Assembly (NCBI GenBank): GCA_964384235.1
Contig: CAYLJX010000004.1
Coordinates: forward strand, 15,916 to 79,915
Reading direction: 5' to 3'
DNA from: an uncultured Bdellovibrionales bacterium
GTDB taxonomy: Bacteria > Patescibacteriota > Minisyncoccia > Moranbacterales > UBA1568
DNA: 64,000 bases
Of this stretch, positions 2,172 to 57,871 are shown in pieces; the stretch's first letter is position 1, and the number at the start of each line of letters is the position of its first letter. A program made the translations under genes and the position numbers. Below the pieces are notes generated by a model. It saw nothing but the letters and a program-made list of their open reading frames with translations, was not told the origin of the DNA and did not search any database.

Positions 2172-2200
2172 TTGACAAAAACTCTAAAAAGGTGTATACT
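2172..2200 (+). promoter_or_regulatory. sigma70-type promoter: TTGACA (2172-2177), 17-nt spacer, TATACT (2195-2200)
   Basis: Consensus -35 and near-consensus -10 with 17-nt spacing, about 90 nt upstream of the first of two tandem small membrane-protein genes. Confidence 0.5.
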
Positions 2201-2288
2201 ATATGGTTCAGTCAAACTGGACTTGTAGTACCCGAACAATTTAACCCATTCCAGAGGGTCGGATCTGGAGAGTCATAGGAGATAAAAG

Positions 2289-2573: not shown

Positions 2574-2590
2574 CTACAAAGGAGAACTCC

Positions 2591-2857: not shown

Positions 2858-2884
2858 GACAATCGACCGCCGACCCACCCATCG

Positions 2885-2940
2885 CCGCCCGAGATACCAC
2901 GCGTAACAGCGCGAACGTATCTGGGCGGTTTTCATTTTTC
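2885..2940 (+). terminator. rho-independent terminator
   Basis: Stem ccgcccgagatac (2885-2897) pairs with gtatctgggcgg (2917-2928) with one bulge, followed by ttttcatttttc. Confidence 0.55.
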
Positions 2941-3120
2941 TTAAAGTCGTTTCCCAGGGTGACCCCATCACCAGCAACCTTTTCTCTTTCCTCCCAAACT
3001 CGAACTGCTTTCAGTTACCGAAAAAAATCGCACCCGGTCAACGGCGGAAAAGCCATTTTTTTCGAACCGAAATCAGTTCTCAGACAGTGTGAGGATGCGA
3101 GAAAAGGTTCTGGCGAGAAG

Positions 3121-3999
3121 TCACTTGAATGTTTCTCGTGTTTCCAAAAATTCCTCCAGCGCTTCGGTGTAGGGACGAAGCGGGATGAACTTGGTATTGC
3201 GAAGCGCGGAATACTTCGGGCGCTTGGCGGGACGAGGAAAGGCGTCGGGCGACACCGGCTGCACGGTGACGTCCATGCCGGCCAGTCGGAACAGTTCCTT
3301 GGCCGCCTCGTACCACGTCACCGCTCCTTCGTTGATAATATGATAGACACCGTAGGGTTTCTGATACATCTCGAGCACCTTGCTCGCAAGCGCGAGATCC
3401 GGCGCATAGGTGAAACAGCTCTTCTCGTCGTCGATGACGGTAAGTTCTTTCTTTTCCTTTGTCACTTCAAGCATCTTTTCAAAAAAACTTTTCTTTCCCG
3501 TCGCGGATGTCGCCGGTTTTCCAAACAGTTTGGAAAGACGAACAAGATACTGTTTGCAACCAGATGCGATCACGTTCTTCTCTCCTTCCCGCTTGCTCGT
3601 CCCGTACTTCGATATCGGATTCGGTTCGGCATCCTCCGCATAGCCTTCCTGACCCTCCCCGTCAAAGACGTAGTCCGTCGAATAGTGAATGAGCGTCGCA
3701 TCGAGATCCTTAGTCAGGCGTGCGAGAAATCCTGGCACCTCGGCATTAAGGAGCATCGCCTTGTGAAACTCTTCTTCGCTCTCTTCGCACAAATCGACGG
3801 CGTTGTACGCCACGGCGTTTATGATGAGCGCCGGACCGAAACTCCGGATCTTCCCTTCCGCTGTGACAAAGTCCGCGAGGTCTATATCCTCGACATCCCA
3901 CGCCGCGACCTCGTATCCCTCGTCTTCCCGGTACACGCGTGCGAGCTCCTGCCCCAGCATCCCCTTGGCTCCCAGTATCAGCACTTTCTTTCTTTCCAT
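3121..3999 (-). CDS. rmlD: dTDP-4-dehydrorhamnose reductase
   Basis: The Rossmann N-terminus MERKKVLILGAKGMLG and the rest match RmlD. The ORF track extends to 4020 (MRKITLSM...), but the start is placed at the internal ATG at 3997-3999; 4020 is the alternative. Confidence 0.85.
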   Translation of the reverse strand: MERKKVLILGAKGMLGQELARVYREDEGYEVAAWDVEDIDLADFVTAEGKIRSFGPALIINAVAYNAVDLCEESEEEFHKAMLLNAEVPGFLARLTKDLDATLIHYSTDYVFDGEGQEGYAEDAEPNPISKYGTSKREGEKNVIASGCKQYLVRLSKLFGKPATSATGKKSFFEKMLEVTKEKKELTVIDDEKSCFTYAPDLALASKVLEMYQKPYGVYHIINEGAVTWYEAAKELFRLAGMDVTVQPVSPDAFPRPAKRPKYSALRNTKFIPLRPYTEALEEFLETRETFK

Positions 4000-4270
4000 A
4001 GATAAAGTAATTTTTCTCATTATACCATCATTCTTTCAAGTTCTCTCCTGATTTCTTTCCCTCAATCTTCCTCTCTCGACCACACTCATTTCCCCAGCGA
4101 GTCACTCGTTCCTAAAATTCCTCGCTCTCCCGACTTTCAGTCGGGAACCGTGCCCGCTCGGAATTTTAAGTGTCTCGATGAGAAAGATTTTCGGGAAAGA
4201 ATCTTTCTTCCGAACGAAAGATAAATCGTGTTCGAGGAGTCGTACAGCGAGAAAAGGGAGAGGGAGCGGA

Positions 4271-4325
4271 GGAAAAAAGAAAAAAATTTAAAGCGGATAC
4301 CTTGATGAGTCAAAGTTCCGCTTGC
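4271..4325 (-). terminator. rho-independent terminator (minus strand) downstream of gene 4479-5438
   Basis: On the minus strand, stem AAGCGGA/TCCGCTT (plus coords 4292-4298 and 4318-4324) is followed by a U-rich tract (plus-strand A-run 4271-4290). Confidence 0.45.
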
Positions 4326-4478
4326 TTTCCGAAAAAACCTTCTTCGATGCCGGATCGGTCGAGGGTGCATTCACCCCGCCGGTAAGATGCGGTGCCCGAT
4401 TCCGTTGCCCGCTCTTTTGTATCCCTTTTTATGCTCATCGAAGCCATCTGTTCCGTACGATTCCTGTCCGAGACCGCT

Positions 4479-5438
4479 CTACGTGATCTCGACGAGACTC
4501 CCGTCATCGAGCGCCCGCGCCACTGCACGCAAAAGATCGGCGTTCTCACGGGAAAATGGCGCATTGAGACATCGCCCCAGAGTCGCGTGTACATCCGAGA
4601 GGAGCTCATTTTCAGGAAGATATATGACTCCGCCTGAAACATCGCGACGAAGCGACGGGCATTTCCCGTCAGGACCCGGCTGTACCGTGTACTGGAACTT
4701 CCGAACATTCACATTCAGGTTATCCACATGCACCGTCGCCTGGACCATATCACCGATGCGTCTGACAACGTCATGCTCCTCCTGTGGCATAGCACCCCAC
4801 TCCTCCGGTCTCCCGGTGGAGACGACCGATGAGACGCGGACAGGTACTGATCCTCGACGCATGGCCGTCATTCCTGCCCGGCCGAGCGCCTCGAGCACCC
4901 AGACGAGAAGCAAGATGATGGCACAGAAAAAGACATACTGCCAGAAGCGGTGACTCTTGAGGAAAGACCACCACTCTTCCGGACTCGTCGCGCCCGACAC
5001 CACCGCGATCCGATCCGTGACGACCACCACGTGCTCGAAACGTCCCTTCATCTCCCTGACCGATGTTTCCAACGTATCGATCTTTCCCTGGAGCTGGTCG
5101 AGGTACTCTTTGGCTGCCGGACTCAAGTGACCGGCCGACTTCCATGACTCTTTGAGTTCCCGACACCGCACGTCGATCGCCTTGCCGGCCTGCATCAGCC
5201 GGTCGCTTCGGATACGGTTGGGCGTCAGGATGGAAGTCCGGACATTCGCAAGCGTCATCGGCTCCGCGCAGTAACGGGCATGCACCCCTCCCGGCGTCTC
5301 GCCGCGTTTAGGAACATCCCGTACCGCGGTCGGCACGCCCGAGGTATCGGTGACATACCCCGCGACGAGCGCCCATACCGGTACCGGCACCGACGCCAGA
5401 AGAAACAACAGGAACAACCGGATGATCCTTCTCATCAC
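4479..5438 (-). CDS. hypothetical secreted/membrane protein (N-terminal signal peptide, one internal TM segment)
   Basis: 319 aa. Strong RBS GGAGGAAAGGAG upstream. N-terminus MMRRIIRLFLLFLLASVPVPVWA. No recognisable catalytic motif. Confidence 0.55.
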   Translation of the reverse strand: MMRRIIRLFLLFLLASVPVPVWALVAGYVTDTSGVPTAVRDVPKRGETPGGVHARYCAEPMTLANVRTSILTPNRIRSDRLMQAGKAIDVRCRELKESWKSAGHLSPAAKEYLDQLQGKIDTLETSVREMKGRFEHVVVVTDRIAVVSGATSPEEWWSFLKSHRFWQYVFFCAIILLLVWVLEALGRAGMTAMRRGSVPVRVSSVVSTGRPEEWGAMPQEEHDVVRRIGDMVQATVHVDNLNVNVRKFQYTVQPGPDGKCPSLRRDVSGGVIYLPENELLSDVHATLGRCLNAPFSRENADLLRAVARALDDGSLVEIT

Positions 5439-5697
5439 ATACTCCTTTCCTCCATTGAACAGCGTTGGACAACGACGATATTCTTTTGTAAAGAACCTCC
5501 CCGCCCTTGTAATACACCGTTCGGCGTCATTTCACTCCACACGAAACCTCCCTCGTCAAACCCAAGAAAATCCCCTCCTTTTTCGTCTTTTACCTATCCA
5601 TCTTATCCATCTGCACACTATAACATACGGTCGGATAGTATAATGCGCATGAAAGAAAAACAAAAAAAGAGGCTACGGAAAGTATGAGAGTGTTTTG

Positions 5698-6354
5698 CTA
5701 TTCCAAGACAGCGGAGAAATCATGTGTCGAACCCTCAGTCATATCGACATACCTGATGCCGAGCGGCTCGAGGAGTGCTGTCGGGACGCGACGTGTCGGA
5801 CCGAGCTCGATCCCCTGCCGGAGCATGCCGTCATGCACCGGAAAGACTACCTTCGGCTTGATCGCTTTGGCGTATTCGACCGCCTCCTCCAACCGCATCC
5901 ACGGACCCGAGACCGGGAGAGCTAAGATCGAAATCTCTTTTTGCGGATCATGAAACGAATCGCCGGGATAAAAAAGTTTCTTGTCGATCAGAAACCCGGT
6001 GTTCTGCACCGGCGGCAAATCATGATGAATACAGGCGTGCTTGGTACCGGAGCTCTGTACAGATACTCCCTTCACGGTTTTCTCCTCCCCATCAGCGATC
6101 GCCTCCCATACGATACCGGCCTCATCCAGAATTTTCCCCACTCCCGCATGAGTAATGATCTTCGCTTCGGGATTCTTGGCGAGAACGATCGAGAGACTGT
6201 CTACATGACAATGGTCCTGGTGCTCATGAGTGATAAGGACCGCATCCACTCCCGTTACCATCGGCGTCTCGTTGTAATTCCCCGGATCAGTCAGGATCCG
6301 CACTCCTCCCGTCTCGATAAGGAGGCAACAGTGCCCGAATTTGGTGATATTCAT
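5698..6354 (-). CDS. metallo-beta-lactamase-fold hydrolase
   Basis: 218 aa with the HxHxDH motif (THEHQDH) and downstream His/Asp ligands. Confidence 0.8.
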   Translation of the reverse strand: MNITKFGHCCLLIETGGVRILTDPGNYNETPMVTGVDAVLITHEHQDHCHVDSLSIVLAKNPEAKIITHAGVGKILDEAGIVWEAIADGEEKTVKGVSVQSSGTKHACIHHDLPPVQNTGFLIDKKLFYPGDSFHDPQKEISILALPVSGPWMRLEEAVEYAKAIKPKVVFPVHDGMLRQGIELGPTRRVPTALLEPLGIRYVDMTEGSTHDFSAVLE

Positions 6355-6355
6355 A

Positions 6356-6817
6356 TCAAATCTTGAAGAACGAATTTAATACTTGTTCAAAACCAGGAAG
6401 GAGCTTGAGTCTCTTGGCGGCTTTCGGGGCGATCCATCGAAAATTCTGTGCCTCCCAGTCCAGGTGGACCGTGTCGGTGGCGACCGTCACCAGTACCGGG
6501 TGCACGATCCACGTCTTCTTGTACTTCGGAGCTTCCTGGTCGAAGATCTGTCCCAGACGGATGGAGAGGATATCTTTCTTCCTGAGACCGAGTTCTTCCC
6601 GCAGTTCGTCCCGCACCTTTTGTTCCAGGCTTCTCCGGTCGTCCAAAAATCCGGAGATGCCGTTCCAGTGGTTTGGATAGAGACGCATCCCGGCGCTCCT
6701 CTCCACGACCAGGATCTTTTGCTTGTACTTCACCACGCAGTTGATCACCGGACAGTAGCGCACGTCCGTAAAATCCACCTGCCCTGGCTTCGGTACGAAT
6801 TTTTCTTCTTTTCTCAT
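6356..6817 (-). CDS. NUDIX hydrolase
   Basis: 153 aa carrying the Nudix box GFLDDRRSLEQKVRDELREELG. Confidence 0.8.
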   Translation of the reverse strand: MRKEEKFVPKPGQVDFTDVRYCPVINCVVKYKQKILVVERSAGMRLYPNHWNGISGFLDDRRSLEQKVRDELREELGLRKKDILSIRLGQIFDQEAPKYKKTWIVHPVLVTVATDTVHLDWEAQNFRWIAPKAAKRLKLLPGFEQVLNSFFKI

Positions 6818-6920
6818 ACTTTACTTCTTCAGTTCCAGAAACTCTCCCTCGCTCACTATCTCGATATGATCATCGACAACCTTCAGGGCCGAATCATCAT
6901 CGAGAGAATATACCATCGGT

Positions 6921-7487
6921 CTATACCACTTTTACTTCTTTCAAATATGGAAAATCTTCCGGTGTCACCCGTAAGCGAGCCGCTGGAGTGACGGATTCAT
7001 AGGAAACCCATTCACTCGTCGACTTACCCTGATTATCCGTGGTTTGCACGAAATTTTCTTTCGGCAAGATATATACCACTCCATTTTTCCATGGATCTTT
7101 TTCCGATAATGTACCATCGATTTCGAAACTGTACGTTTTCACTCCCTGATCATCCGTACTATACCCGGAACGAACCATTCCATGAAGTCGATTCCGATCC
7201 TTAATGGCATAAAACAGCGGTAGTATCGGATCAGATACCGCATAGACTGCCTTTTGGTTTCCTGATTTTTTCGATGCGTCATTCGCTTGACGAGGCTCAA
7301 GCGCTTCCGTATCTTCGACCGAAGACCCATGAAGCAGATAGCCGTTCTCCAACAAGTAAGCTAAGAACTTATGTTTCGGGGAGTCGATACTATACTCGAC
7401 GTCTCCACCAAGACTCGCCCTCATTTCGTTCAGCAATTTCAAAAACTTTTCTTGCTCTGGATCTGAAACCGGATGTTCAAAACTCAT
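6921..7487 (-). CDS. hypothetical protein, translationally coupled downstream of rmlB
   Basis: 188 aa. The start is 9 nt after the rmlB stop. No recognisable motif. Confidence 0.5.
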   Translation of the reverse strand: MSFEHPVSDPEQEKFLKLLNEMRASLGGDVEYSIDSPKHKFLAYLLENGYLLHGSSVEDTEALEPRQANDASKKSGNQKAVYAVSDPILPLFYAIKDRNRLHGMVRSGYSTDDQGVKTYSFEIDGTLSEKDPWKNGVVYILPKENFVQTTDNQGKSTSEWVSYESVTPAARLRVTPEDFPYLKEVKVV

Positions 7488-7496
7488 AAGAGTCTC

Positions 7497-8501
7497 TTAG
7501 CGTTTTTCGTACTGCGTTTCGTAGTATTTCTGGTACTCTCCCGACTTTACGTTTCGCCACCAGGATTTGTTTTCCTGAAACCACGCGACGGTCTTCGCCA
7601 AACCCTCCTCGAGAGTCACCTGCGGTTCCCAACCGAGCTCGTTCTTGATCTTCGTATAGTCGATGGCGTAGCGGCGGTCGTGGCCGGCGCGGTCTTTGAC
7701 GAACTCGATTCTGTCTTCGCCTTTGCCGAGGAGTTTCAGAATTTCCTTGACGACGGAGAGGTTGGTCGGCTGGTTGCCGCCGCCCACGCAGTACGTCTCG
7801 CCGATCGTTCCCTTGCGCAGGACGAGATCGATCGCACGGCAGTGATCCTCGACGTAGAGCCAGTCGCGCACCTGGCCACCATCGCCGTAGACCGGGACTT
7901 TTTTTCCTTCCAGAAGGTTGGTGATGACCAACGGAAAGAGTTTCTCCGGAAAATGATAGGGCCCGTAGTTGTTGGTGCAGTTGGAAATCGTCACCGGCAA
8001 ACCGAAGGTGTGGAAGTACGCTCGCACGAGATGATCCGAAGCGGCCTTGGAAGCACTATAGGGACTCCTCGGGTCGTACGGCGTCGACTCGTCAAACGGC
8101 GGATCATCCGGCTCCAAGGCACCGAACACCTCGTCGGTCGAGACATGATGGAAACGCTTGCCGTGCTTGCGAGCCGCCTCGAGAAGGACATAGGTCCCGC
8201 GCACGTTGGTATCGACGAACGCTCCCGGATCGAGGATCGAGCGGTCCACATGCGACTCCGCCGCGAAGTGCACCACCGCGTCGCACTCCGCGACGAGCGG
8301 CTCCACCAGCTCGGCGTCCGTGATACTCCCCTTCACGAACCGGTGCCTCGGGTCGTCCTGATACGTGGCGACGTTCCCGAGATTTCCGGCATAGGTGAGC
8401 GCGTCGAGATTGATCACGCTGTCCTGTGGATAGTTATCCAGGATGTAGTGGACGAAATTCGATCCTATAAAACCAGCGCCTCCTGTTATAAGTAATTTCA
8501 T
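7497..8501 (-). CDS. rmlB: dTDP-glucose 4,6-dehydratase
   Basis: MKLLITGGAGFIGSNFV... with YxxxK; the start is placed at the internal ATG 8499-8501. The ORF track's 33-aa N-terminal extension is judged spurious. Confidence 0.9.
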   Translation of the reverse strand: MKLLITGGAGFIGSNFVHYILDNYPQDSVINLDALTYAGNLGNVATYQDDPRHRFVKGSITDAELVEPLVAECDAVVHFAAESHVDRSILDPGAFVDTNVRGTYVLLEAARKHGKRFHHVSTDEVFGALEPDDPPFDESTPYDPRSPYSASKAASDHLVRAYFHTFGLPVTISNCTNNYGPYHFPEKLFPLVITNLLEGKKVPVYGDGGQVRDWLYVEDHCRAIDLVLRKGTIGETYCVGGGNQPTNLSVVKEILKLLGKGEDRIEFVKDRAGHDRRYAIDYTKIKNELGWEPQVTLEEGLAKTVAWFQENKSWWRNVKSGEYQKYYETQYEKR

Positions 8502-8515
8502 AAAATAGAGATCAG

Positions 8516-9067
8516 CTATATATGGAATTCGGAAACAATATCCTTGAGAAGCGGCAACGCGGCATCCTTTTCCGAAACGAGCGCTTCCGAAGCCGGCCAC
8601 GCTATGCCCAAATCAGGATCATTCCAACAAACACCTCGGTCGGACGCCTTGTCATAGACATTTGTCACCTTGTACGTGAACACCGTATCATCCTCGAGTG
8701 CCATGAACGCATGCGCGAATCCTTCCGGAATCCAGAACTGCGCGTGATTTTCTTCGGAAAGTTCCACCATCACATGCTTCCCATAGGTGGGCGATCCTGT
8801 CCGGATATCCACCGCGACATCAAGGACTCGACCCCGAAGCACCGAGACGAGTTTCCCCTGCGCGAACGGCGGGGCCTGATAGTGTAATCCACGCACGACG
8901 CCCTTCTTCGATTTGGAAACGTTGTCCTGGACGAACCGTTCCGCGGGAATACCGAGTTCCTGGTACTTCTTGAGGCTGTACGACTCGAAAAAATACCCCC
9001 GGTCATCGGCATACACGTCAGGCACCAAAAGCATCGGCCCCTCGATATCGAACCGTTTCGTTTCCAT
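8516..9067 (-). CDS. rmlC: dTDP-4-dehydrorhamnose 3,5-epimerase
   Basis: 183-aa cupin with RmlC motifs: VRGLHYQ, FWIPEGFAHAF. Confidence 0.9.
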   Translation of the reverse strand: METKRFDIEGPMLLVPDVYADDRGYFFESYSLKKYQELGIPAERFVQDNVSKSKKGVVRGLHYQAPPFAQGKLVSVLRGRVLDVAVDIRTGSPTYGKHVMVELSEENHAQFWIPEGFAHAFMALEDDTVFTYKVTNVYDKASDRGVCWNDPDLGIAWPASEALVSEKDAALPLLKDIVSEFHI

Positions 9068-9104
9068 ACCGGTTTTCTCAAAAGTTATGTCCTTCCTATC
9101 CTAA

Positions 9105-9140
9105 CACAAAAGAAAGCCGCCCCACAGGGCGACTTTCTTG
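9105..9140 (-). terminator. rho-independent terminator for the KH-protein gene
   Basis: 12-bp stem (agaaagccgccc / gggcgactttct, one mismatch) with loop caca. A U-tract follows on the minus strand. Confidence 0.55.
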
Positions 9141-9160
9141 ATTCGCACACAAGAAAACTT

Positions 9161-9517
9161 TTACAGTTTGATGTCGTTCATCACGTCGTCGAGCGACCGC
9201 TTCTCCTCCTCGGCCGGGCGCTCCTCGCGAGCCTCACGCGGTTCGCGCGGCGGGCGCTCAGAACCTTCCGGTTCGTTGATCTTGAGATTGACACGGGCGT
9301 TGTTCCTCGCACCGATGACACGAAGGAGCGTTCGCAGGGCCTTGGCGGTCATGCCTTCGCGGCCGATCACCATACCCATATCCTTGGGATTGACATCGAG
9401 GGTGATGAGCACGCCCATCTCGTCGATCTTGCGTTCCACTTTCACGTCGTCGGGATTGTCGACGAGCATCTTCACGACATATTCGATAAACTCCTGGTCT
9501 CTTACATTGTCCGTCAT
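9161..9517 (-). CDS. KH-domain RNA-binding protein (KhpA/YlqC-like) with charged C-terminal tail
   Basis: Carries the KH motif VIGREGMTAKALRTLLRV, followed by an acidic/basic low-complexity tail. Confidence 0.7.
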   Translation of the reverse strand: MTDNVRDQEFIEYVVKMLVDNPDDVKVERKIDEMGVLITLDVNPKDMGMVIGREGMTAKALRTLLRVIGARNNARVNLKINEPEGSERPPREPREAREERPAEEEKRSLDDVMNDIKL

Positions 9518-42640: not shown

Positions 42641-42994
42641 TCAGCCCTCCTGCGGTTTGGCGGCCGGCTTGGTAGGCTTCTTGACCGGCTTGTCGGCCAC
42701 TGTCGTCTTGACCGGCTTGTCGGCCACTGTCGTCTTGGCCGGCTTGGTAGGCTGGGTCGCCGGAGGGGGGACCGGCTTCTCCGCGGCTGCCTCCTGCGCG
42801 TCCTTGGCTTCCCGCTTCGCGGCGTGCTTGTCCAGCACGTCAGCGGATCCACTGGCAGCCTTGGCGCCGACCCGGGCCATGTCCGCCGACAGACTCATCA
42901 TGCTGGCACAGCCGCCGAGACCAAGGGAAATGACTGTCACCGCAAGAACGGTAAGAACTTTGTTCACGATAAACCCCCTTCGTAAAAAACGCAC
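42641..42994 (-). CDS. lipoprotein with proline/lysine-rich repetitive C-terminus
   Basis: Signal peptide plus lipobox LGLGGC. Carries the tandem KTTVADKPV repeat. Confidence 0.6.
   Translation of the reverse strand: MRFLRRGFIVNKVLTVLAVTVISLGLGGCASMMSLSADMARVGAKAASGSADVLDKHAAKREAKDAQEAAAEKPVPPPATQPTKPAKTTVADKPVKTTVADKPVKKPTKPAAKPQEG
42681..42746. repeat. exact 27-bp tandem duplication (ttgaccggcttgtcggccactgtcgtc x2) plus partial third copy inside the lipoprotein gene
   Basis: Copies at 42681-42707 and 42708-42734 are identical, followed by the partial ttggccggcttg. Confidence 0.7.
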
Positions 42995-43095: not shown

Positions 43096-43626
43096 TCACC
43101 GGAAACGAATCGGGATGCGGATTTCAGCGGCGTTTTCCGGGAGACCGGAGGGATTGTCTTTTTCGAGGACGAGCGTGCCGGTCGCGGTTTCGGATTCCGG
43201 AAACGTGAGCACTGTTTCGAACGGGACGAATTCCGTCGTCATCCACTCGGCCAAAGCCTGGGCCGGCATGACGGCGAGCTCCTTACCATTGCCATCAAGG
43301 AGACGCACCGGAAAGGACGCCTCGAAATACCACGTTCCCCTCGCTTCCCCCGTGACCCGGAGCGGGCTCGTCACGACGCTCTCCGGGAGAGGAGAACTCA
43401 GACGGACATTGTCATCGGCGTACGGTGTAGGCGTGGCTGTCACCGGAACTGTCGGACACGATGTGAACTCGCACCGGGGCGGCACCCGTCCCACGTACGA
43501 CCCATCGGGACAGAGCCTCGCCTCCATCGTACATGCGACCTCCTGCCCCGAGAGCCGTTGATACACGAAAAACCCTATCCCCCCGATCACCAAGAGACAG
43601 AATATGACGACGAAAGAACGTTTCAT
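43096..43626 (-). CDS. Gmad2 immunoglobulin-like domain protein, membrane-anchored
   Basis: N-terminal TM segment and a cysteine-rich linker. GEARGTWYFEASFPVRLLDGNG resembles the Gmad2 pattern. Confidence 0.5.
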   Translation of the reverse strand: MKRSFVVIFCLLVIGGIGFFVYQRLSGQEVACTMEARLCPDGSYVGRVPPRCEFTSCPTVPVTATPTPYADDNVRLSSPLPESVVTSPLRVTGEARGTWYFEASFPVRLLDGNGKELAVMPAQALAEWMTTEFVPFETVLTFPESETATGTLVLEKDNPSGLPENAAEIRIPIRFR

Positions 43627-44108
43627 ACTTTCGGTTTCAATGCTGTAAGGTCCGCGAGGATGGCTTCGGCGTGAGCATCCGGTTTGACGTTCTCATAGAT
43701 TTTGGCGATCTTGCCCGCGGGATCGATGAGAAATGTCGTGCGAAGCGTCCCCATGTACTCGCGTCCCATGAATTTCTTCTTGGCCCACACGTGGTACTTC
43801 AAGACGACGGTCCTGTCCTCGTCGGAAAGCAACGTAAAGGGAAGCGAGTACTTCTCCACGAACTTGGCATGCTTCTTCACCGGATCGACCGACACTCCGA
43901 GCACTACCATACCCTGACGCTTCAGCCGCGCGAAGTTATCCCGGAACGAACAGGCCTCCGCCGTGCACCCCGGCGTATCGTCCTTGGGATAGAAATACAA
44001 GACGACCCACTTGCCGAGATAGTCTTTGAGCGCATGCGTCTTCCCCTCCTGATCCGGGAGCCGAAACCCCGGCGCCTTCGATCCGACTTTGAGCATAAGT
44101 AAAATCAT
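43623..44108 (-). CDS. bcp: thioredoxin-dependent peroxiredoxin Bcp/PrxQ
   Basis: FYPKDDTPGCTAEAC active site. The start is placed at ATG 44108 (MILLMLKVG...), which has a GAGGGA RBS. The ORF track's 65-aa extension is unlikely to be real. Confidence 0.85.
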   Translation of the reverse strand: MILLMLKVGSKAPGFRLPDQEGKTHALKDYLGKWVVLYFYPKDDTPGCTAEACSFRDNFARLKRQGMVVLGVSVDPVKKHAKFVEKYSLPFTLLSDEDRTVVLKYHVWAKKKFMGREYMGTLRTTFLIDPAGKIAKIYENVKPDAHAEAILADLTALKPKV

Positions 44109-44149
44109 TTTCGGATTATCCCTCGCTTGTTTCCTTACACTCCGAAAGA

Positions 44150-44395
44150 CTACTTCTTCCAACGCGGGGCGAAGCGGATGAGGAAGGTGAAGAATTTCGC
44201 CTTGAGCGGATTCATCCCGCCCTTTATCATGTTCTCGTAGGCGCGCTTTTGAAATTCTTTGAGGTCGTTCCCCTCGTAGCAGAGCTTGCCGTCGCGGAAA
44301 CACAGGTTACAGTACCGTTCGTTCTCCCGAGTCATCTGCCCGTGCGCCTCATCCAGCGGCATCATGCAGCTCTCGCAGTGTTTGTGCTTCGCCAT
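44150..44395 (-). CDS. putative zinc-ribbon domain protein
   Basis: 81 aa with MAKHKHCESCMMPL...CNLCF providing a Cys4 arrangement. Confidence 0.5.
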   Translation of the reverse strand: MAKHKHCESCMMPLDEAHGQMTRENERYCNLCFRDGKLCYEGNDLKEFQKRAYENMIKGGMNPLKAKFFTFLIRFAPRWKK

Positions 44396-44461
44396 AGTTT
44401 TTGCTTTATTATTACTTTTTCAGTATACACCCGAACGAAAACCGGTCCTGTTTCCGGGACT

Positions 44462-45232
44462 CTAGCGTCTTCGTTTGGCGGAGAGATCCCACACCATATC
44501 GAACTGGAGCCGCATCAGACGGGCGAAGTCCGCGCTCTGCACGACAAACCCGAAGGCCTCGGCCGCCGAACTGACGAACAGCACCTTGTCGCCATAGACC
44601 GTGTAGGCCATGTCCGGAGCGAATCCCGCCGGAGCGAAACGCCGTTCCACGTCGGCATCGCGGTCCTGCCACAGCAAGGCTTTGCCGGATGTGGGAGCCG
44701 GAGCCCAGATGGTCCGCAGACGAAGACCGTTGCGTATCCGTTTCTCGTTGAACGTGGCGAGCTCCTTGCTCCCCAGCGCCCGGATCATCTCATCATACGG
44801 CCAGAGCGCGCAGAGCGTCACCCGCTCGTCCCAGAGCATGTCGTGCATGGCGGTCACGATGGATCGGCGGCCCCGGAAAAACCGGATTCGCGGATCGACG
44901 GACTGATGACCTTTGACGAGCGACTCCTTCTTGCGGGCCAAAGTCTGACGGAGACCCTTGAGACGTTCCTCTTCATCGGAGAGCATCCGCTCCACGTCGG
45001 AAAGATCGCGCACCATGAACTCCGTCCGCCCGTCGATATCGCGCTCCACGATGAGCGTCCGGGCAACGAGGACCTTGAGCTGATCATACACCGACGGCCG
45101 GGTCATACCGAGACGCGTCGCGATCGTACGCGCCGAGGATGCCCCGTTCGCCACCAAGTCGCCAAAGACCACCCGGGCCGGAGCGGGTACGTCGAGCGCC
45201 CCCAAGATGTCGTCGAGAAGACGGTTTGCCAT
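44462..45232 (-). CDS. TrmB-family transcriptional regulator
   Basis: N-terminal wHTH (SARTIATRLGMTRPSVYDQLKVL) plus a C-terminal TrmB-like sensor domain. Confidence 0.6.
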   Translation of the reverse strand: MANRLLDDILGALDVPAPARVVFGDLVANGASSARTIATRLGMTRPSVYDQLKVLVARTLIVERDIDGRTEFMVRDLSDVERMLSDEEERLKGLRQTLARKKESLVKGHQSVDPRIRFFRGRRSIVTAMHDMLWDERVTLCALWPYDEMIRALGSKELATFNEKRIRNGLRLRTIWAPAPTSGKALLWQDRDADVERRFAPAGFAPDMAYTVYGDKVLFVSSAAEAFGFVVQSADFARLMRLQFDMVWDLSAKRRR

Positions 45233-45349
45233 ATTTGTCGAAATTCGTCGACAGTATAACAGACTGAAAAGAATCTGGCAAGATGCGGGTACAGCAGTCA
45301 GGACCGTTCATTCACAACCTTGTTCCTAACCCTTTCACAGGAGGCCATC

Positions 45350-45880
45350 ATGGCAAAGAAACCCGTCCTCGCCGTACCCAAAAACACGCTGGAAGCCAAC
45401 GCTTCCCTCTACCGGATCGGCACCATCGATCGCGACATCACCGACATCGAAGCCTCGCTCGCGGCGGCCATCGCCACCCTGCAGAACGAGGCGGTCGCGA
45501 AGCTCAAGTCGCTCGTCAATGAGCGCAAGGATCGGCTCGCCGGTCTCGAGCAGTTCGCCGTCGACAACCGTACGGACATCCTCGCAGGCGGCCGGAAGTC
45601 CGTCGAGCTCGCCGCCGGTGTCATCGGCTGGAAGATGACTCCCCCGAAGGTCGTGCTCGCCCGCGGAGGAGAAAAGAAGGCGCTCGAAACGCTCAAGCGC
45701 CTGAGACTCCAGAAGTACATCCGGACCAAGGAATCCCTCGACAAGCAGTCGCTCCTGCGCGAGCGTCCCGAGATCACAGGTATCCGGTACGTCCAGCGCG
45801 AAGCGTTCTTTGCCGAGGCCAAGACGGATACTCCTCCAGAAGCGGCCGCAAACGTCATCGCCCTGGCGCGCCCCGCCTAG
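45350..45880 (+). CDS. gam: phage Mu Gam-like host-nuclease inhibitor (Ku-like DNA-end-binding) protein
   Basis: GGAGG RBS sits 5 nt upstream. IGWKMTPPKVVLARGGEKKALETLKRLRLQKYIRTKESLDKQSL aligns closely by eye with Mu Gam (VSWRVRPPSVSIRGMDAVMETLERLGLQRFIRTKQEINKEAIL). Confidence 0.7.
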   Translation: MAKKPVLAVPKNTLEANASLYRIGTIDRDITDIEASLAAAIATLQNEAVAKLKSLVNERKDRLAGLEQFAVDNRTDILAGGRKSVELAAGVIGWKMTPPKVVLARGGEKKALETLKRLRLQKYIRTKESLDKQSLLRERPEITGIRYVQREAFFAEAKTDTPPEAAANVIALARPA

Positions 45881-45944
45881 GCACCCCACCACTACCCCGA
45901 CAGACATCGTTCTGTCGGGGTTTTCTTGTAAAAAGAATGAAGTG

Positions 45945-46430: not shown

Positions 46431-46524
46431 GAGATATGAGGTATATGAGATAGGAGATATGAAATCCGTATTGCATCAGACGATGACGAACGAAACGGTG
46501 ACGAGGTCGCCGTCGGAAAATAAG

Positions 46525-46968
46525 CTATTCCAAATCGAGAGAGCGGGTCGGGCGCATGATGGATTTCGGGTCGGTCTTCCAAGCGTCGGAAACGTCGGCG
46601 TAAAGCTCGAGCTGGTTACCGTCCGGGTCGAGGATGTAGAGGCTGTGCGTCACCGCGTGGTCGCCTGAGCCGACGATGGCGACATTCCCCTTTTCCTTGA
46701 GCTCCCGGTACGCCTCTTTCACCGCATCCGGTCCGTCGCCGATCTTGAAGCCGATGTGGTACAGGCCCGGCTCCGGCAAATGCGCATCCCTCGGCTTCCC
46801 ACCCACCTCCAAGAGCATGAGTTCGTGATGCGTGCGCCCGGCAGAATAGACCGCGTATCCGCGGCCACGGTCGATCTCGTGAAAGCCGAGCGTGTCACGG
46901 TAGAAATCCGCCGACCGTGCGAGATCAGTGACATAGAGCACGACATGTCCAAGTTCGTGAATACGCAT
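46525..46968 (-). CDS. VOC-family protein (glyoxalase/extradiol dioxygenase-like)
   Basis: HVVLYVTDLARSADFYRDTLGF and a second module carrying H/E ligands. Confidence 0.7.
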   Translation of the reverse strand: MRIHELGHVVLYVTDLARSADFYRDTLGFHEIDRGRGYAVYSAGRTHHELMLLEVGGKPRDAHLPEPGLYHIGFKIGDGPDAVKEAYRELKEKGNVAIVGSGDHAVTHSLYILDPDGNQLELYADVSDAWKTDPKSIMRPTRSLDLE

Positions 46969-46973
46969 AGCAG

Positions 46974-47216
46974 TTATTGCAGCGGTATGCCGTTATCGCG
47001 TATGTCGATGATTTGGTTGATTTCCTCTTCGCGTCTTTTCTCTTCCTCTTCTTCCCTTTTGATCCTTTCCAGGTTGCCTTCGATCTGATACTCAGTATCG
47101 ATTTCCGGTGTCGGGGCGACCTCTCCTACTTCCGGTTGAACATCAGGATGTTCCGGCTTCTCAGGCTCCGGCTGATCCTCTTCCTTCCGCGGAACGAATT
47201 TTTCGATGAAATTCAT
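46974..47216 (-). CDS. small acidic hypothetical protein
   Basis: The start is placed at ATG 47216 (MNFIEKF...). This avoids an overlap with the upstream gene that the ORF track start at 47327 would create. The protein is rich in E/K/P. Confidence 0.4.
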   Translation of the reverse strand: MNFIEKFVPRKEEDQPEPEKPEHPDVQPEVGEVAPTPEIDTEYQIEGNLERIKREEEEEKRREEEINQIIDIRDNGIPLQ

Positions 47217-47265
47217 AGATGATAAGGAGTAAGAGACAAGGGACAAGTAACAAGAAAAGGGGGAG

Positions 47266-47703
47266 TCACGATTTTTTTCTTGTTTTCCACCATTCCCAAG
47301 CAAACATCGCAAGGCTGATGACAACAAAAAGCTCGCTCATCGCGATGGAAACCGACAATTTTGTCGGGCCGATACCAAGCCAACCCCCCACAGAAACCGG
47401 AACCAACGAAATCAAAACAACAGAAACAAAAAACCAACCCAAAGCGAATCGAAACCACTTTATGAAGAGTCCGTCTCGAACAAAAAAGAGAAAAAAAGAA
47501 ACAATAATCAATGCAATAGACAGCCAGTAGAGTGGCTTTCCTACAGTTTGTGAGCTCTTATCAAGACATCCTTGATAATCACCAAAATTATATTGGTTAT
47601 CACAAATACCAAACATCAGCTGATTACGAGTAATGTAGGATATTCCAAACAGCACAACGGCCAACAAAAGAACCGTTATCCTCCACCAATATGTCTTTTG
47701 CAT
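47266..47703 (-). CDS. hypothetical multi-pass membrane protein (lower-GC gene)
   Basis: 145 aa with 4 hydrophobic helices. The local GC content is clearly below the window average. Confidence 0.5.
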   Translation of the reverse strand: MQKTYWWRITVLLLAVVLFGISYITRNQLMFGICDNQYNFGDYQGCLDKSSQTVGKPLYWLSIALIIVSFFLFFVRDGLFIKWFRFALGWFFVSVVLISLVPVSVGGWLGIGPTKLSVSIAMSELFVVISLAMFAWEWWKTRKKS

Positions 47704-47712
47704 ATTTTTCTT

Positions 47713-50700
47713 TTAGTAACTTATTTTCACCTTCCCCTGCCCTGTCTGCATGAAGGGCACTACGAGTCCTGAGAGCTCCTTCTTCATCGGTCGAGTATCG
47801 ACTCTGTCATCGTCTTCTTCCTCGTCCAATTCTTCCGGTTTTTCCATGATCACTGTCACGTCTTTCTTGGGACGATAGTGCGATTCGACCTTCATCTCGC
47901 CGCTTCGGAAGAACGAGGCAAGGATGAGGTATTTCTTCTCCTTCTCATTATATACCCATTTGTACCGGAAGGCCGTATCAGAGAGCTTGGTCACTTGGCC
48001 ATCGTATGAGATGGATTCGAGCGTACGAACGATACGGTGCTCTTTATCCTTGACATCGGAGAACGTGAGCAACGTGACATGACCAGCTTCATCGATGAGG
48101 GAAACAGTCGTCTCGTCTTTTTTCTTGCGGTCTTTCTTATTGTCTTTTTTCGAAGATTCCGGATCAGAGTCCGGGACGACCACTGAGACAGTGGTCAGAT
48201 TGTCCGTACCGGTGATATCGAGCTTCTGGGTATCCTTGTTAAACTGAATCTTGGCTTCGGGAACAGTCTTGTCGATTTTGATCGTTACCGTCTTTTTCTC
48301 TTCTTTGTTCTCTTCTTTGTCGGTGGAGAAATACTGAAGTGTATCCGTGCCCTCCTTGGAAAGGATAATCGGTTCGTCATATTCCTTCCATGTCTTGCCA
48401 TCATCGAGGGAGTATTCCGTCTTGTCGATACCGCTGCCTCCTTCGTCATCCGTGGCAGTAAGCGTAACCGTGACATCGCTCACGTACCAGCCATTCTTGC
48501 CTTCCGTACCAGAAAGGAAGTGTTCCGTAACCGGAGGAACGATATCGCCGAGCGTCGCGGTACCATCCGGTACCGGGACGACCCGATAGTCTTTCCCATC
48601 ATCGCCGTCCACGTCGGCTTCCAACGGTTCGAGGTCGTCCAGACCACTCTCCGGAATATCCAACGAAACGACCGTATCGGCAGTGGTCGGCAAGTTCTCG
48701 AACGTCGTATAGGAAACGATTTCCTCGTCAGTCGCCGTCGGTTTCACTTCCTGGAGTTTGAGCGTATACGATCCGGTCGCATAGCCGTCCATCCGGACGC
48801 GGATATGCTCGCCACCGCCGAATCCGACATACTTTCGGTCGCCGAACTGGTAGTAGTAGCTGTTGGGAATACCCTCCTCGAAAGCGATGCGTTCCTCTCC
48901 ATCGATCGTCACCTTCTTTGGTCCGGTATGGCGCCCCTCATCATCGTAGAGATGGATGTCGAGCGGTGAGTAGAGAGACATACGAAGACGGGATTCATTG
49001 TCATCAGTCTCCGGTCGAGCGCTTCTTATAAACACAGATGAATAGCTGTCCTCACTGTTAGTGACAATGTTTGCAAGTAACTGCTGAACTGGACCTACTT
49101 CGGTAAGATTTCTATGCGTATAATTCTTCTCCTCTTGAGAATTAATGTAGCCATTAAGATCCACCCAATACCTCTTCACGTTTTCAGACCCTGAAAACAT
49201 GAGTGCACTCGGTGTGACTACCACTTCGTCGCCATCCACGGTGAACTTCGGTTCATAGACCGGCTCGTACTCGGTGGTCTCACCACAGAGAGGGATGAAT
49301 CCGCCATCATCATCACATTCCACCATTTTCTTTTCCGTATATTCCACACCGCTCACCGTGTCCAATCCCCAACCGGCGATCTGGATCACCTGGATATCCA
49401 AGGGCGGTGTCCATGCATCCAGACGTGCGTGCATCCCGGCCGCCTTATCCAGCAGGTCGTCGTCCAAGACGTTTTCCAGATCCGTCTCGTTCTTGCCCGG
49501 TTCGTCACGTCCATCCTCCGTCCCGAGGAGGAATTTCTTGAACTCATCGTAGTCCCCGATAGTGTCGCCGTACGCATTCTTGAAATCCTCATAGCGTGTC
49601 CGCTCCGATGAGAAGCGTATGAACGGATCGTTCATCCGGTCGAAATACGTGGCCGAAGGAAGGAGTCCGTACGCGCCCGGCATATTCTCCGCGAGCTCGC
49701 GCGCCTCTCCCTGAGACATGAGGGTCGGAATCGGCTCGTCATAGCCGTAGAGCAGCGAAAGAACCGAGAGCGGCGTGCCCATCTGTGGCGAACCGACGAA
49801 GACGATCTTGTCCACGAGACCCGTCTTGCCCTGCCGGTCGAGTTCGAGCATGATCGCCTTGGCGAGGAGGCCGCCGTTGGAATGAGCGATGATTGTCACT
49901 TTGTCACTCTTGGAACTCTCGGAGAGAGCCTGGAGCCTCTCGAGAGCGGAGCGTATCTCGCCATCAGGATACGGCGTTCCGTCCCTCGCTATGTCTTCCA
50001 CGTCCATCCGCCAGTCATAGGCAAACGCTTCGTAGTCATTGATGGTACCACCTGATTTGAGCTCAGCGAGCTTGTCGAGGAATCCTTTGTAGAGAGGCCC
50101 CCCGACCACCAGGTAATCGATTGACTTCAAGACGTCTCTCGTATACACGCTCTCGATGCTCTTGCCATCCTCATCGAGTGAGAGTTCTTCGATGTCATCA
50201 CCGAACTGGTTCGGGAGCCACAGTTGGTCCTCCGTACCGAGAGCACCGTTCTTGTAGAGCTTGCTCGCCTTGATACCAGGAAGAAAGAAGACGTTGGAAT
50301 GACAATTTTCAACGCATCCCGCAAACGGATCCTCGGTCAGAAAGTTTTCCGTATCCACGCCGTTGAAGAACTTCGTCCAATCCGGACCCTCGGGGCGCCC
50401 CCACCAGTTGGACTGAAAGTTCCAGCGGATCTGGCCGGTGAGGTTCGCGACATCGAACTTGGTGTTATTGAAAAAGCGGGAACGGTTCACCCGGATATTC
50501 GTCCCGCGTTCCGAGTAGATATCGGAAATCATGATCCCGACGGCGACCAGGCTGTCATGGAAACTCGAATGCTCCACGGTGAGATAGGCCGTATCATAGA
50601 CCATCAACGTCCCTGTGATTTCCTGGTACCAGTTGTCGAGACCGGGTACCATGACGATCCGACCGCCACCGCTCACGTCGGCATAGTCGAGATCGATCCA

Positions 50701-54202: not shown

Positions 54203-56797
54203 CTACCCTCTTTTCCCTGTTGTCAACACCTTCTTGAGATACATACCGGTATACGAGCCGGTTTTGCGGGCGACTTCCTCGGGCGTGCCATGGGCGACGA
54301 GCTTGCCGCCGCCCGATCCGCCTTCCGGTCCGATATCGATGACATAGTCGGCGCTCTTGATGAGATCCATGTTGTGCTCAATGACGAGGACGGTATTACC
54401 CTTCACCACGAGACGTTCGAGGATCTCGATCAGTTTCTTGACATCCTCGTAGTGGAGCCCGATGGTCGGCTCATCGAGGAGATAGATGGTGCGCTCGATG
54501 TGCTGGCGGTAGAGCTCGCTCGCGATTTTCACGCGCTGCGCTTCGCCGCCGGAGAGCGTGGTCGCGGATTGGCCGAGCTTGAGATAACCGAGACCCACTT
54601 CGTTGAGCGTCTTCAGCCGGTCGGCGATGGCCGGGATGTCATGGAAGAACGCGTAGGATTCCTCGATGGTCATCTCGAGCACCTCGTAGACGTTCTTGTG
54701 CTTGTACTTGACCTCGAGGGTTTCCTTGGTGAAGCGCTTGCCATCGCAGACGTCGCACGTCACGTAGACCGTCGGGAGAAAGTGCATCTCGACGGCGATG
54801 AAGCCGTTCCCCTCGCACGTCTCGCAACGCCCGCCGGGACGATTGAAGGAAAAGCGGCCGGCGCGCCACCCCCTGACCCGCGCCTCTTCCGTCGAGGCGA
54901 AGAGGTCGCGCACGTGCGTCCACGCGCCGGTGTAGGTGGCCGGATTGGAGCGAGGCGTCCGACCGATCGGACTCTGATCGATGAGGACCGCGCGGGAGAG
55001 GTACTCGCTCCCGGTGAACGTCTTGCAATGGAAGGTCTTGTTGGATTTGTAGCGGCGGTCGAAACGGGTCTGGAGGTTCTTGTGGATGATCTCGTAGAGA
55101 AGGGTCGACTTGCCCGAGCCGGACACGCCCGTGATGACGTTGAAGCGTCCGAGTGGGATGTCGACGTTCATGTTCTTGATATTGAAGAGCTCTCCGCCGC
55201 GGACCTTGAGCTCGCCCTTTTCCTTGGTCCGGCGGGTCGCCGGGACAGGCACGCGCGTCTCGTCACGCAGGTATGAGAGCGTGAGCGACCCCGATTTGTT
55301 CTTGGGCGCGGTGAGGAGCTCATCGAGAAAACCGGAAACCACGACGCTTCCGCCATGGACGCCGGCACCGGGTCCGATATCGACGATGTAGTCCGAGGCG
55401 AAGATCGTGTCCTCGTCATGCTCCACCACGATGATGGTGTTGCCGAGGCTCCGCAGGGCCTGGAGCGTCTCGATGAGCCGCTCGTTGTCACGTTGGTGCA
55501 GACCGATGGTCGGTTCGTCGAGGACGTAGAGCGCGCCCACGAGCTGGGAGCCGAGCTGCGAAGCGAGCCGGATACGCTGGGCCTCGCCGCCGGAGAGTGT
55601 GTTGGCCCGACGATCGAGGGTGAGATAGTTGAGGCCGACATTGAGGAGAAACTGCAGCCGCGAGCCGATCTCACGGAGGACCACCGCGGCGATCTCACGC
55701 TCACGCTCGGTGAGATCGAGTCCGTCGAAAAAATTCCTCGCGTCTTCGGTGGTGAGCTTGGTCAGTTCGACAATGTTTCGTTTGCCGACGAGGACGTGGA
55801 GCGCTTCCTCGCGCAGACGCGTCCCGTGACAGACCTCACACGGCTCGTCGCCGAAAAAGTGCTTGGTCCCGAGACCGTTGCAGGCCTCACAAGCACCATA
55901 GGGAGAGTTGAAGGAGAAAAGGCGCGGCTCGACCTCCGGATAGGAGAAGCCGTCATAAGGACAGGCGAACTTGGCCGAGAGGACGAACGGATCCGCACCA
56001 AGATGGATTTTCACGAGACCTTCGCTCTCCTCGATAGCGCGCTCCACCGCTTCGGAGAGACGCTCGCCGGACGTCTCGGGAAACTTCTCGAATTCGATGA
56101 GCGGCACCTCGTCGACGATGAGGTCGATGTCATGCTTCTTGTTCTTGGAGAGGATGACCTGTTCGCGCAGGCTCTTGCGCTCGCCGTCGAGGAAGATTTC
56201 CGAGAAACCTTTGCTCAGGGCATTGTAGAGGAGCTGATAGTACTCCCCTTTGCGGCCGCGCACCACCGGTGCCGTGATGATGAGCGAATCGTTTTTTTTC
56301 TTCGGCGAAACAAGAGCTTTCTTCATCCGTTCGCGCACGATCTCGAGCATCTCCTCGGTGGAGAGCTTTTGGATCTCGCGGTTGCAGACGAGACAGTGCG
56401 GCCGGCCCAACCGTGCGAAGAGCACGCGCAGGTAGTCATAGATCTCCGTCACGGTAGCGACCGTCGACCGAGGGTTCCTGCTCGCGGACTTCTGGTCGAT
56501 GGAGATGGCCGGTGAGAGACCGACGATCTCGTCCACGTCCGGCTTCTGCATGGTATTGAGGAATTGCCTGGCATACGCAGAAAGCGACTCGACGTAGCGG
56601 CGCTGCCCCTCGGCGAAGATCGTATCGAAGGCCAGGGAGGACTTGCCGGAACCAGAAAGACCGGTGAAGACGACCATCTTGTTCCGTGGCATCTCGACGG
56701 TGATGTTCTTGAGATTGTGAGTGCGCGCGCCCTTCACGACGATCCACTCAGAGGGTTCGTGTTTCATTGGGGTCATGTTTTTCGATGATTTGGACAT
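54203..56797 (-). CDS. uvrA: excinuclease ABC subunit A paralog lacking the insertion-domain segment
   Basis: 864 aa with both ABC modules and zinc-finger cysteines. After CEACNGLG...CEVCHGTRL the sequence continues directly into the signature region. The paralog at 32934-35735 has about 100 extra residues at this position. The N-terminal start is uncertain (56797, 56776 or 56767). Confidence 0.85.
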
Positions 56798-56858
56798 ACA
56801 AAAAAAGAAGCTATTGGTCCGTCAGTATACCCCGAAGCGAGGAAAGAATCAATGTTCG

Positions 56859-57554
56859 TCAGAAATACTCTCGGATCAGACGGTACTCGTCTTCACGCTC
56901 GGGATGGACGACGAGTTCGACCGTTCCAGCGGGAACCGTCTCGAAAAAACGCTTCGGATCGGAAAGCCAATCGAGACTCATCATATAGTCGGAAGTAGGA
57001 AGCGGCATCTTTGCATGCATATCCCGTGTGCGTCGCCACAGGACTGAGAGAATTCTTCCTACGAAAGTATTCGTGTGATTGAACATGCCCTGCCGTCCGA
57101 ACCGCACATATCCTATGCCGTATTGCTCCGCCAGCCCGAGAAACACGCGAAAGAATTTCGGAAAGTAATGGATATGCTCATGGGAGTTCAATCCGTCCGG
57201 CAGACGGCCGAAGAGTTCGCGGAAACGCTCTATCTGTACCTGCCACTGCTCTTCGGCGTGCCGAGCCGTCACCTGACCGGTGAGATAGCGCCAGGTAAAA
57301 CTCATGCCACGGAAAAAAGCGCTCCCCCGGACGTTCGTTCCGCTCTTCAGGAAATCGATGAGTTCCAGATGGAGATCGATCTTGACGCCTGTCTCGAGGA
57401 GATCAGCCGCCTCTTCGGGTGTCGTGAAATGGATGAGCACCGCCACACGGTCCAGTTTTCCTTCGCGAGCCAAATGCAAAATCGGCCGGGAAGTCTCCCG
57501 GATACCGTAATCGTCCGCCGTAAGGATGAGTTTGGAACGGATGTCTGCTGTCAT
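56859..57554 (-). CDS. ChbG/YdjC-family carbohydrate deacetylase
   Basis: LILTADDYGIRETSRPILHLAREGKLDRVAVL matches the YdjC N-terminal metal site. 231 aa. Confidence 0.75.
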   Translation of the reverse strand: MTADIRSKLILTADDYGIRETSRPILHLAREGKLDRVAVLIHFTTPEEAADLLETGVKIDLHLELIDFLKSGTNVRGSAFFRGMSFTWRYLTGQVTARHAEEQWQVQIERFRELFGRLPDGLNSHEHIHYFPKFFRVFLGLAEQYGIGYVRFGRQGMFNHTNTFVGRILSVLWRRTRDMHAKMPLPTSDYMMSLDWLSDPKRFFETVPAGTVELVVHPEREDEYRLIREYF

Positions 57555-57871
57555 GAGGTAAACGTTACCCTCCCATTCTCTATCCTTACTCCCTCCTTGG
57601 CAAGACGGCGTGCCTTTTCTGTGGAACCACCGCGATTGTACTCGCCGATACGCCCGTCAGACCGGACGACCCGGTGACACGGCACCGATTCGTCGAAGTT
57701 GTCCCTCATGACGGTCCCGACGGCGCGGGCCGCTCCGGGAAAACCGGCGCGCTTCGCGACTTCTCCATAGGAGAGTGTTTGGCCGCGTGGAATCTTTCGC
57801 ACGGTATCCCGCACTGCTTCCGCGAAATCCTTCTTATTCAGTTTTTTGATATGACTTTTCATATTTTCCAC
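57551..57871 (-). CDS. MGMT-family protein (O6-alkylguanine-DNA alkyltransferase DNA-binding/active-site domain only)
   Basis: 106 aa with VPCHRVVRSDGRIGEY (active-site Cys retained) and the HTH region. 4-nt overlap with the ydjC-like gene. Confidence 0.75.
   Translation of the reverse strand: MENMKSHIKKLNKKDFAEAVRDTVRKIPRGQTLSYGEVAKRAGFPGAARAVGTVMRDNFDESVPCHRVVRSDGRIGEYNRGGSTEKARRLAKEGVRIENGRVTFTS

Follow-up and report, generated by a model that had tools for sequence, protein, structure and literature searches.

What is a gam gene of the phage Mu type doing in a stretch of bacterial chromosome in which no prophage can be recognized? The question is raised by an open reading frame (ORF) at 45350-45880 (+) of the 64-kb stretch of DNA from an uncultured Bdellovibrionales bacterium that was analyzed here, and which is referred to, at its full length, as the window. 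In phages, Gam is a weapon against RecBCD; in the laboratory, it serves to mark double-strand breaks. Here, gam behaves like a host gene: it is conserved, it is under purifying selection, its composition is native and it comes with its own regulator gene and operator-like element. Together, the regulator and Gam constitute a conserved two-gene module, in which the divergently encoded, TrmB-like regulator is the conserved partner of Gam.

The gam ORF runs from an ATG at 45350 to a stop codon at 45880 and codes for a product of 176 residues. We favour this ATG over an in-frame TTG at 45320 because the homologues share a MAKK/MARK N-terminus. The consensus ribosome-binding site claimed in the first-pass annotation of this DNA is indeed there, as the Shine-Dalgarno sequence AGGAGG (45339-45344, +), read from the sequence 5 nt before the ATG, and its context, AGGAGGCCATCATGGC, is conserved across loci. 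On the 3'-side of gam, a terminator scan finds an intrinsic-terminator-like hairpin (45894-45921, +), with an 11-bp stem followed by a run of T, facing a convergent DUF456 gene. The product matches Pfam family PF07352 (Phage_Mu_Gam) with an E-value of 2.3e-25 and 89.7 bits, against a cut-off of 28.3, over positions 3-148 of the 149 in the model; it also matches PHROG 491, 'Mu Gam-like end protection' (3e-27), Gam-type families being its sole PHROG matches, and the solved Gam-like structure 2p2u from Desulfovibrio (E 9e-15 over residues 4-163; 1.5e-27 in a profile search). Phage Mu gam itself is 29% identical over residues 34-145 (tblastn, E 2e-8). By sequence, the product belongs to the Mu Gam family over its full length, with a match far above chance, and the identity proposed for it in the first-pass annotation is thus borne out by all three resources. 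An exhaustive protein search yielded 1282 representatives of the Gam family, four of them at E<1e-30 and the best 51% identical, and a word-indexed protein search found a single near-identical Gam. In the predicted model of the monomer, a long helix at the N-terminus leads into a beta-rich C-terminal domain.

The same annotation had seen no integrase, terminase or structural genes nearby, and the wider scans agree. Pfam scans covered 58 ORFs over the 64 kb of the window, and PHROG scans covered Gam, the regulator, a neighbouring zinc-ribbon protein and 10 ORFs without a Pfam match between 31.9 and 58.9 kb. No integrase, terminase, capsid, portal, tail or transposase gene was found among the 58 ORFs, and neither the 10 ORFs lacking a Pfam match nor the regulator and zinc-ribbon proteins matched any PHROG; the flanks thus hold no recognizable prophage. 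Scans for tRNA genes and Rfam families gave no matches, and no att-like flanking repeats were found around the module. Composition does not betray a hidden prophage either, since the 43-47 kb segment does not stand out in the window by its G+C content (GC) or tetranucleotide usage (z from -1.6 to +0.4). With all of these checks negative, an origin of the locus as a prophage or island was rejected. Close relatives in phages were also sought: by tblastn against 50,697 phage records, no record covers at least 80% of Gam, the best match being partial and 34% identical, and a pattern-limited scan of IMG/VR, which detects only sequences sharing two short peptide patterns, found no relative of Gam.

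It is the conservation of the regulator next to Gam that carries the argument. A genome scan based on a 6-sequence alignment, with one genome per species, returned 17 Gam loci. A TrmB-like gene lies immediately upstream of, and divergent from, gam in nine of them, including all five in which Gam is at least 44% identical; the records of the paired loci are titled 'uncultured Bdellovibrionales', Saccharibacteria and Moraniibacteriota. The other eight loci, mostly labelled Patescibacteria, are without the regulator, and the flanking ORFs sampled at these loci included no phage genes. Searched from the side of the regulator, Gam is the divergent neighbour in 8/9 of the homologues examined, the exception being P0183. 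In this direction the contexts are contigs of 33-145 kb carrying TyrRS, SecDF, PheRS and UvrA/UvrC, with neighbourhoods that differ by species. Altogether, the pair occurs in at least 12 non-redundant, mostly non-syntenic chromosomal contexts and is conserved across identities from 34% to 78%, and the identities of regulator and Gam co-vary over 12 modules (Spearman 0.76, p 0.004). Ratios of nonsynonymous to synonymous substitution rates (dN/dS) lie between 0.11 and 0.17 in the regulator and between 0.16 and 0.38 in Gam. Because these values indicate purifying selection, both are maintained genes and not decaying remnants. Moreover, the conservation of the pair under purifying selection in long housekeeping contigs of many relatives strengthens the view that no prophage is involved. 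The two neighbours named in the first-pass annotation, a divergent TrmB-family regulator and a zinc-ribbon protein, are both present; what does not stand is the standing of the former as a mere neighbour, since it is the conserved partner of Gam.

Two further observations concern the distribution of these genes. The nearest relatives of the window are metagenome-assembled genomes titled 'uncultured Bdellovibrionales', and the next-nearest modules and Gam proteins come nearly all from Patescibacteria (Saccharibacteria, Moraniibacteriota, Paceibacteria, Uhrbacteria and Nealsonbacteria); either these labels cannot be relied on or the module is found across phyla. At locus L035, a second and shorter Gam-like ORF (8819-9211, -; 130 residues, hidden Markov model E 3e-10) lies directly downstream of gam, with a gene for an RVT_1 reverse transcriptase (350 residues) adjoining.

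The regulator gene (44462-45232, -), which is divergent from gam, encodes a TrmB/TrmBL2-like protein of 256 residues, in which a winged helix at the N-terminus and a PLD-like domain at the C-terminus flank a long coiled-coil helix. Its own Pfam score for TrmB (24.7 bits) falls slightly below the cut-off of 25.6; PF01978 is, however, present as a precomputed match in all 32 regulator homologues, and a profile built from these 32 matches TrmB (3qph) at 1.3e-5. The AF2 model of the regulator has a pLDDT of 86.8 and, in Foldseek, matches TrmBL2 (5bpd) over its full length (E 2.6e-12, about 270 columns), while the C-terminal domain resembles NucT, Nuc and the sugar-binding domain of TrmB, 2f5t (4.6e-6). 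A PLD-type nuclease activity was considered for the regulator and rejected as unlikely, because no His is invariant in the family; by eye, YGDK takes the place of HxK. The regulator thus shares with TrmB and TrmBL2 of the Thermococcales the winged helix, the coiled coil and the PLD-like C-terminal domain, but it is bacterial, only about 15% identical to them, and its usual cargo is Gam; where those proteins are linked with sugar-transport operons or with chromatin binding across the genome, it appears to be tied to a palindrome at the promoter of its own gene. Remote homologues (27% identical) on replicons of Azospirillum and Cupriavidus are divergent from transporter or acyl-CoA operons. By analogy, this placement resembles that of ordinary ligand-responsive local regulators, and it would fit a regulator that controls its neighbour.

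The regulator and gam are separated by 117 bp, within which lies an operator-like palindrome, TTGTCGAAATTCGTCGACAG (45235-45254), with arms TGTCGA/TCGACA and a 6-nt spacer, placed between the -10 element of the regulator promoter and the ATG of the regulator. It is directly followed by GTATAAC and, 17 nt further, by TGGCAA. Across loci, the operator/promoter block has the near-invariant consensus TTGTCGnnnTTCGyCGACAGTATAAC, and it is kept even where, in modules of Saccharibacteria, identity to the window proteins has dropped to about 35%. All 19 loci that were retrieved have one copy of the TTGTCGAAATTCGTCGACAG element and no more, and in every case it lies in the interval that separates the regulator from Gam. 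The putative regulator promoter (45253-45281, -) has a -35 element TTGCCA, a 17-nt spacer and an extended -10 element TGtTATACT (10/12 in a consensus scan, with the TG extension), and the aligned intergenic regions of other loci retain both hexamers. On the side of gam, a second element, the GTTCATTCACAAC box (45306-45318, +), is conserved in most modules at 13-31 nt upstream of the start codon; it may be the -10 region of gam or a second regulatory site. From this arrangement we infer that the regulator binds the palindrome, regulates its own synthesis and controls the divergent gam promoter. We also considered the operator as a marker of a genome-wide regulon and rejected it as such: the 64-kb window holds a single exact TTGTCGAAATTCGTCGACAG site and one site with three mismatches, the latter at chance level. 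A scan of public contigs for the operator gave 138 matches, mostly due to chance given its 17 specified positions, with the regulator present at 6/120 metagenome and 0/18 viral matches, which makes for a weak test.

We consider it probable, on the sequence evidence, that the module encodes a domesticated Ku-like end binder, fixed in the chromosome and under transcriptional control, whose task is the protection or repair of DNA ends; the end-repair purpose is held with less certainty than the part that concerns a domesticated, regulated module. The TrmB-like regulator would bind the palindrome, autoregulate and gate the adjacent gam promoter, the gating being set by a signal that the conserved PLD-like C-terminal domain would sense. 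Gam dimers would then load onto double-stranded DNA ends and keep exonucleases away from them; they may also keep the ends in place until the housekeeping NAD-dependent ligase rejoins them, in the way reported of Mu Gam in E. coli. The outcome would be an inducible, minimal, Ku-like handling of broken ends. The literature on Mu Gam describes dimers that bind the ends of double-stranded DNA (dsDNA), block the loading of RecBCD and can support end joining with the host ligase (PMC8987985; preprint PMC12407980). A bolder version, which we regard as doubtful, is that the domesticated phage Gam is the Ku of these uncultured bacteria, the Patescibacteria-like ones as well as those labelled Bdellovibrionales, providing ligase-D-independent, inducible protection and joining of ends under a dedicated, ligand-sensing TrmB-type switch, and that the switch itself (regulator, operator and divergent promoter) is a portable cassette which captures varied cargo.

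Several observations weigh against an end-protecting, regulated module, or at least against parts of it. At the distant loci L030, L072, L080 and L102, the same regulator, palindrome and GTTCwTT box, the latter of the GTTCATTCACAAC type, are paired with a gene other than gam, the box lying upstream of these cargo genes as well. The cargo is a Gcw_chp-like protein of about 260 residues with a signal peptide at L030 (7106-7885, -) and L102 (2019-2894, +), 52% identical to each other, a small membrane protein at L072 (2137-2643, +) and an unknown protein at L080 (1715-2287, +). Because the regulator and operator also face non-Gam cargo, the regulator is not intrinsically a regulator of the response to DNA damage; the regulatory cassette therefore seems portable, with Gam as the cargo in the clade of the window. 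In addition, the case for control of gam by the regulator consists of the conserved divergent adjacency and of an operator that lies at the regulator's own promoter, about 80 nt upstream of the presumed gam start, so that this control remains a matter of inference from sequence. The Gam monomer model gave no significant structural match in Foldseek, and Ku was recovered neither by sequence nor by fold, there being no Pfam Ku match for Gam and no Ku chain in the profile search of the PDB. The genomic neighbours of the module vary between species and, in a sister strain, it adjoins a mobile or defence island, so that the module may have some mobility.

How the module relates to known systems bears on how far the comparison with Ku can be taken. 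Like phage Mu Gam and 2p2u, the window protein is a full-length member of the family of single-domain length (176 residues; the 2p2u chain has 171), and it is presumed, by analogy, to bind dsDNA ends as a dimer and to block exonucleases. Unlike Mu gam, the gene lies outside a Mu-like early operon or prophage. As a monocistronic gene it has a terminator to itself and a TrmB-type regulator as its partner, and it is vertically conserved in the chromosomes of uncultured lineages. Gam is called an orthologue of Ku in literature cited in PMC8987985 and PMC12407980, and the proposed role, that of a homodimeric end-binding factor that protects ends and recruits or assists a ligase, would parallel that of Ku in bacterial Ku/LigD non-homologous end joining (NHEJ). 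None of the tests run, however, places the window Gam in the Ku family, and it lacks the association with LigD: neither a ligase nor a Ku domain was found in the 58 window ORFs scanned, and no ligase in the called genes of related loci. Because no LigD-type ligase is adjacent or among the ORFs scanned, any Gam-assisted joining would need the housekeeping ligase. The Gam protein of lambda shares the name, and it too protects linear DNA from RecBCD, but it is an unrelated protein, a DNA mimic that binds the RecBCD enzyme and not DNA (PMC12407980). Our literature searches found no description of a regulator-Gam module of this kind, and a 2022 review places bacterial Gam/Ku homologues in defective Mu-like prophages (PMC8987985). 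What is new here, relative to that knowledge, is a host-fixed, monocistronic gam with a dedicated TrmB-type regulator and a conserved operator, and its recurrence across many uncultured lineages. If the proposed role is correct, the module would show plainly how a phage DNA-end binder can be taken into the DNA-end metabolism of the host, and would indicate a minimal Ku-like pathway in organisms whose repair repertoire is reduced; the operator and regulator would, in addition, offer a tractable transcription switch for organisms in which almost no regulation has been characterized.

Strain variation next to the module brings in a different role for Gam. In the sister strain (L001/L002), Gam is 94% identical to that of the window and the downstream genes are 100% identical, but in L001 the 109 bp at 44387-44495 of the window, as delimited by blastn breakpoints, are replaced by an island of 7.6 kb (1532-9148) that lies exactly between the zinc-ribbon gene and the 3'-end of the regulator gene. 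The island codes for Bro-N, an unknown protein of 255 residues, an M78 (ImmA/IrrE-type) peptidase, Vsr, a C5 DNA methylase, a MutH-like endonuclease and RadC, with no integrase among its gene calls, and by its gene content it looks like a restriction-modification/defence islet. At L007, gam and the intergenic region are 100% identical in nucleotide sequence to the window, while the body of the regulator gene (44584-45284) drops abruptly to about 70-79% identity, as it does in L001, within flanks that are 94-100% identical in these strains. Between L001 and L007 the regulator alleles are 93% identical, such that two allele classes exist in the population, and against the window allele dS is about 1 (saturated) and dN/dS about 0.15. 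Positive selection on the regulator, which might be suspected from proteins 73-77% identical next to Gam proteins 94-100% identical, was rejected on the strength of these values and of the sharp tract boundaries, which mark instead the import, by recombination, of a long-diverged allele. The island and the allele swap place the pair next to a hot spot for recombination and insertion, at which the pair itself is retained.

Such a setting is compatible with a role in defence, in which a host Gam would cap incoming linear phage or transforming DNA, so as to block its circularization, recombination or replication or to mark it for a nuclease, the regulator keeping Gam off until infection. The module abuts the site of the restriction-modification/Vsr/RadC/M78/Bro-N island in L001, a reverse transcriptase gene adjoins the gam genes in L035, and the exchange of a regulator allele between otherwise near-identical strains is a pattern often seen at loci of conflict. 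Expression of JBD30 gam, moreover, antagonized transduction independently of Gabija (PMC12407980), and NHEJ by Ku/LigD contributes to phage resistance in mycobacteria (PMC12848934). We nevertheless regard defence as unlikely. PADLOC gave no match for Gam and, for the regulator, only a weak match to Csa3 (8.3e-5, 20.8 bits) that overlaps the winged-helix region; the conserved neighbours are mostly genes for stress responses, repair and housekeeping, not for defence; and the dN/dS of about 0.15 at saturated dS speaks of an old allele import, not of diversifying selection.

Less probable still is that the module is what survives of the early region of a degraded Mu-like prophage or island, with a Gam that continues to act against RecBCD on behalf of that element. 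The Gam family is typically borne by phages, the module occupies different neighbourhoods in different species and an island insertion adjoins it in L001, all of which would suit a leftover of this kind. It would be a peculiar leftover, however, with no other gene of a phage or mobile element in 64 kb, native composition, neither flanking repeats nor a tRNA, and a pair that, from 78% identity down to 34%, stays under purifying selection and keeps its fixed operator; nor was a homologue of the regulator found in the 50,697 phage records, or a close relative of Gam in the phage collections. A role other than end binding, with Gam as a nucleoid or architectural protein or as partner or antagonist of the regulator in a toxin/antidote-like pair, is highly improbable. 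In its favour are the likeness of the regulator's C-terminal domain to the nucleases NucT and Nuc, the nature of TrmBL2 as a chromatin protein and the co-evolution of regulator and Gam. Against it, the PLD catalytic His is absent, the same regulator occurs with unrelated cargo, which speaks against an obligate protein-protein pair, and Gam retains the full-length architecture of its family.

The surroundings of the module consist of ordinary chromosomal genes, many of which serve repair or stress responses, and this richness counts in favour of the end-binding reading. Repair functions in the window include UvrA, UvrC, UvrB, a UvrA paralogue, an MGMT-type protein with a PCHR site and an ExoIII-type nuclease (Xth), and at L012 and L033 UvrA and UvrC are within 5 kb of the module. 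Stress-related products comprise MsrB, a pirin, AhpC/BCP and two glyoxalase/Ble-like proteins; DUF456, PilM, MiaB-like radical-SAM enzymes, an M17 peptidase and MraZ are also encoded. Downstream of the regulator gene and on the same strand, the zinc-ribbon gene (44150-44395, -) encodes a Zn_ribbon_2 protein of 81 residues (Pfam PF12674, 3.7e-9). A gene of this kind comes after the regulator in L037 and L038 too, and in L026 it is about 3 kb distant, which makes it a recurrent but not a constant neighbour. The longest ORF for the AhpC/BCP peroxiredoxin (43623-44303, -) overlaps the zinc-ribbon gene; the calls on identical contigs use a form of 161 residues that starts near 44108, and the long form is probably an artefact of ORF calling.

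Further along the same strand, a 117-residue putative lipoprotein (42641-42994, -), rich in Ala, Pro and Lys and with a tandem TTVADKPVK repeat, has no Pfam or PHROG match. On the other side of the module, positions 46501-49500 form the stretch of lowest GC in the window (0.44-0.49), with atypical tetranucleotides (z up to 3.4); this segment covers a membrane protein of 145 residues and the 3'-part of the gene for an LCAT-like protein of 1109 residues, and is 100% identical in the sister strain. Finally, at 54203-57871, the UvrA paralogue (864 residues) adjoins a YdjC-like protein and a protein of 106 residues that corresponds to the C-terminal domain of MGMT and has an intact PCHR, the canonical UvrA, UvrC and UvrB being encoded elsewhere in the window.

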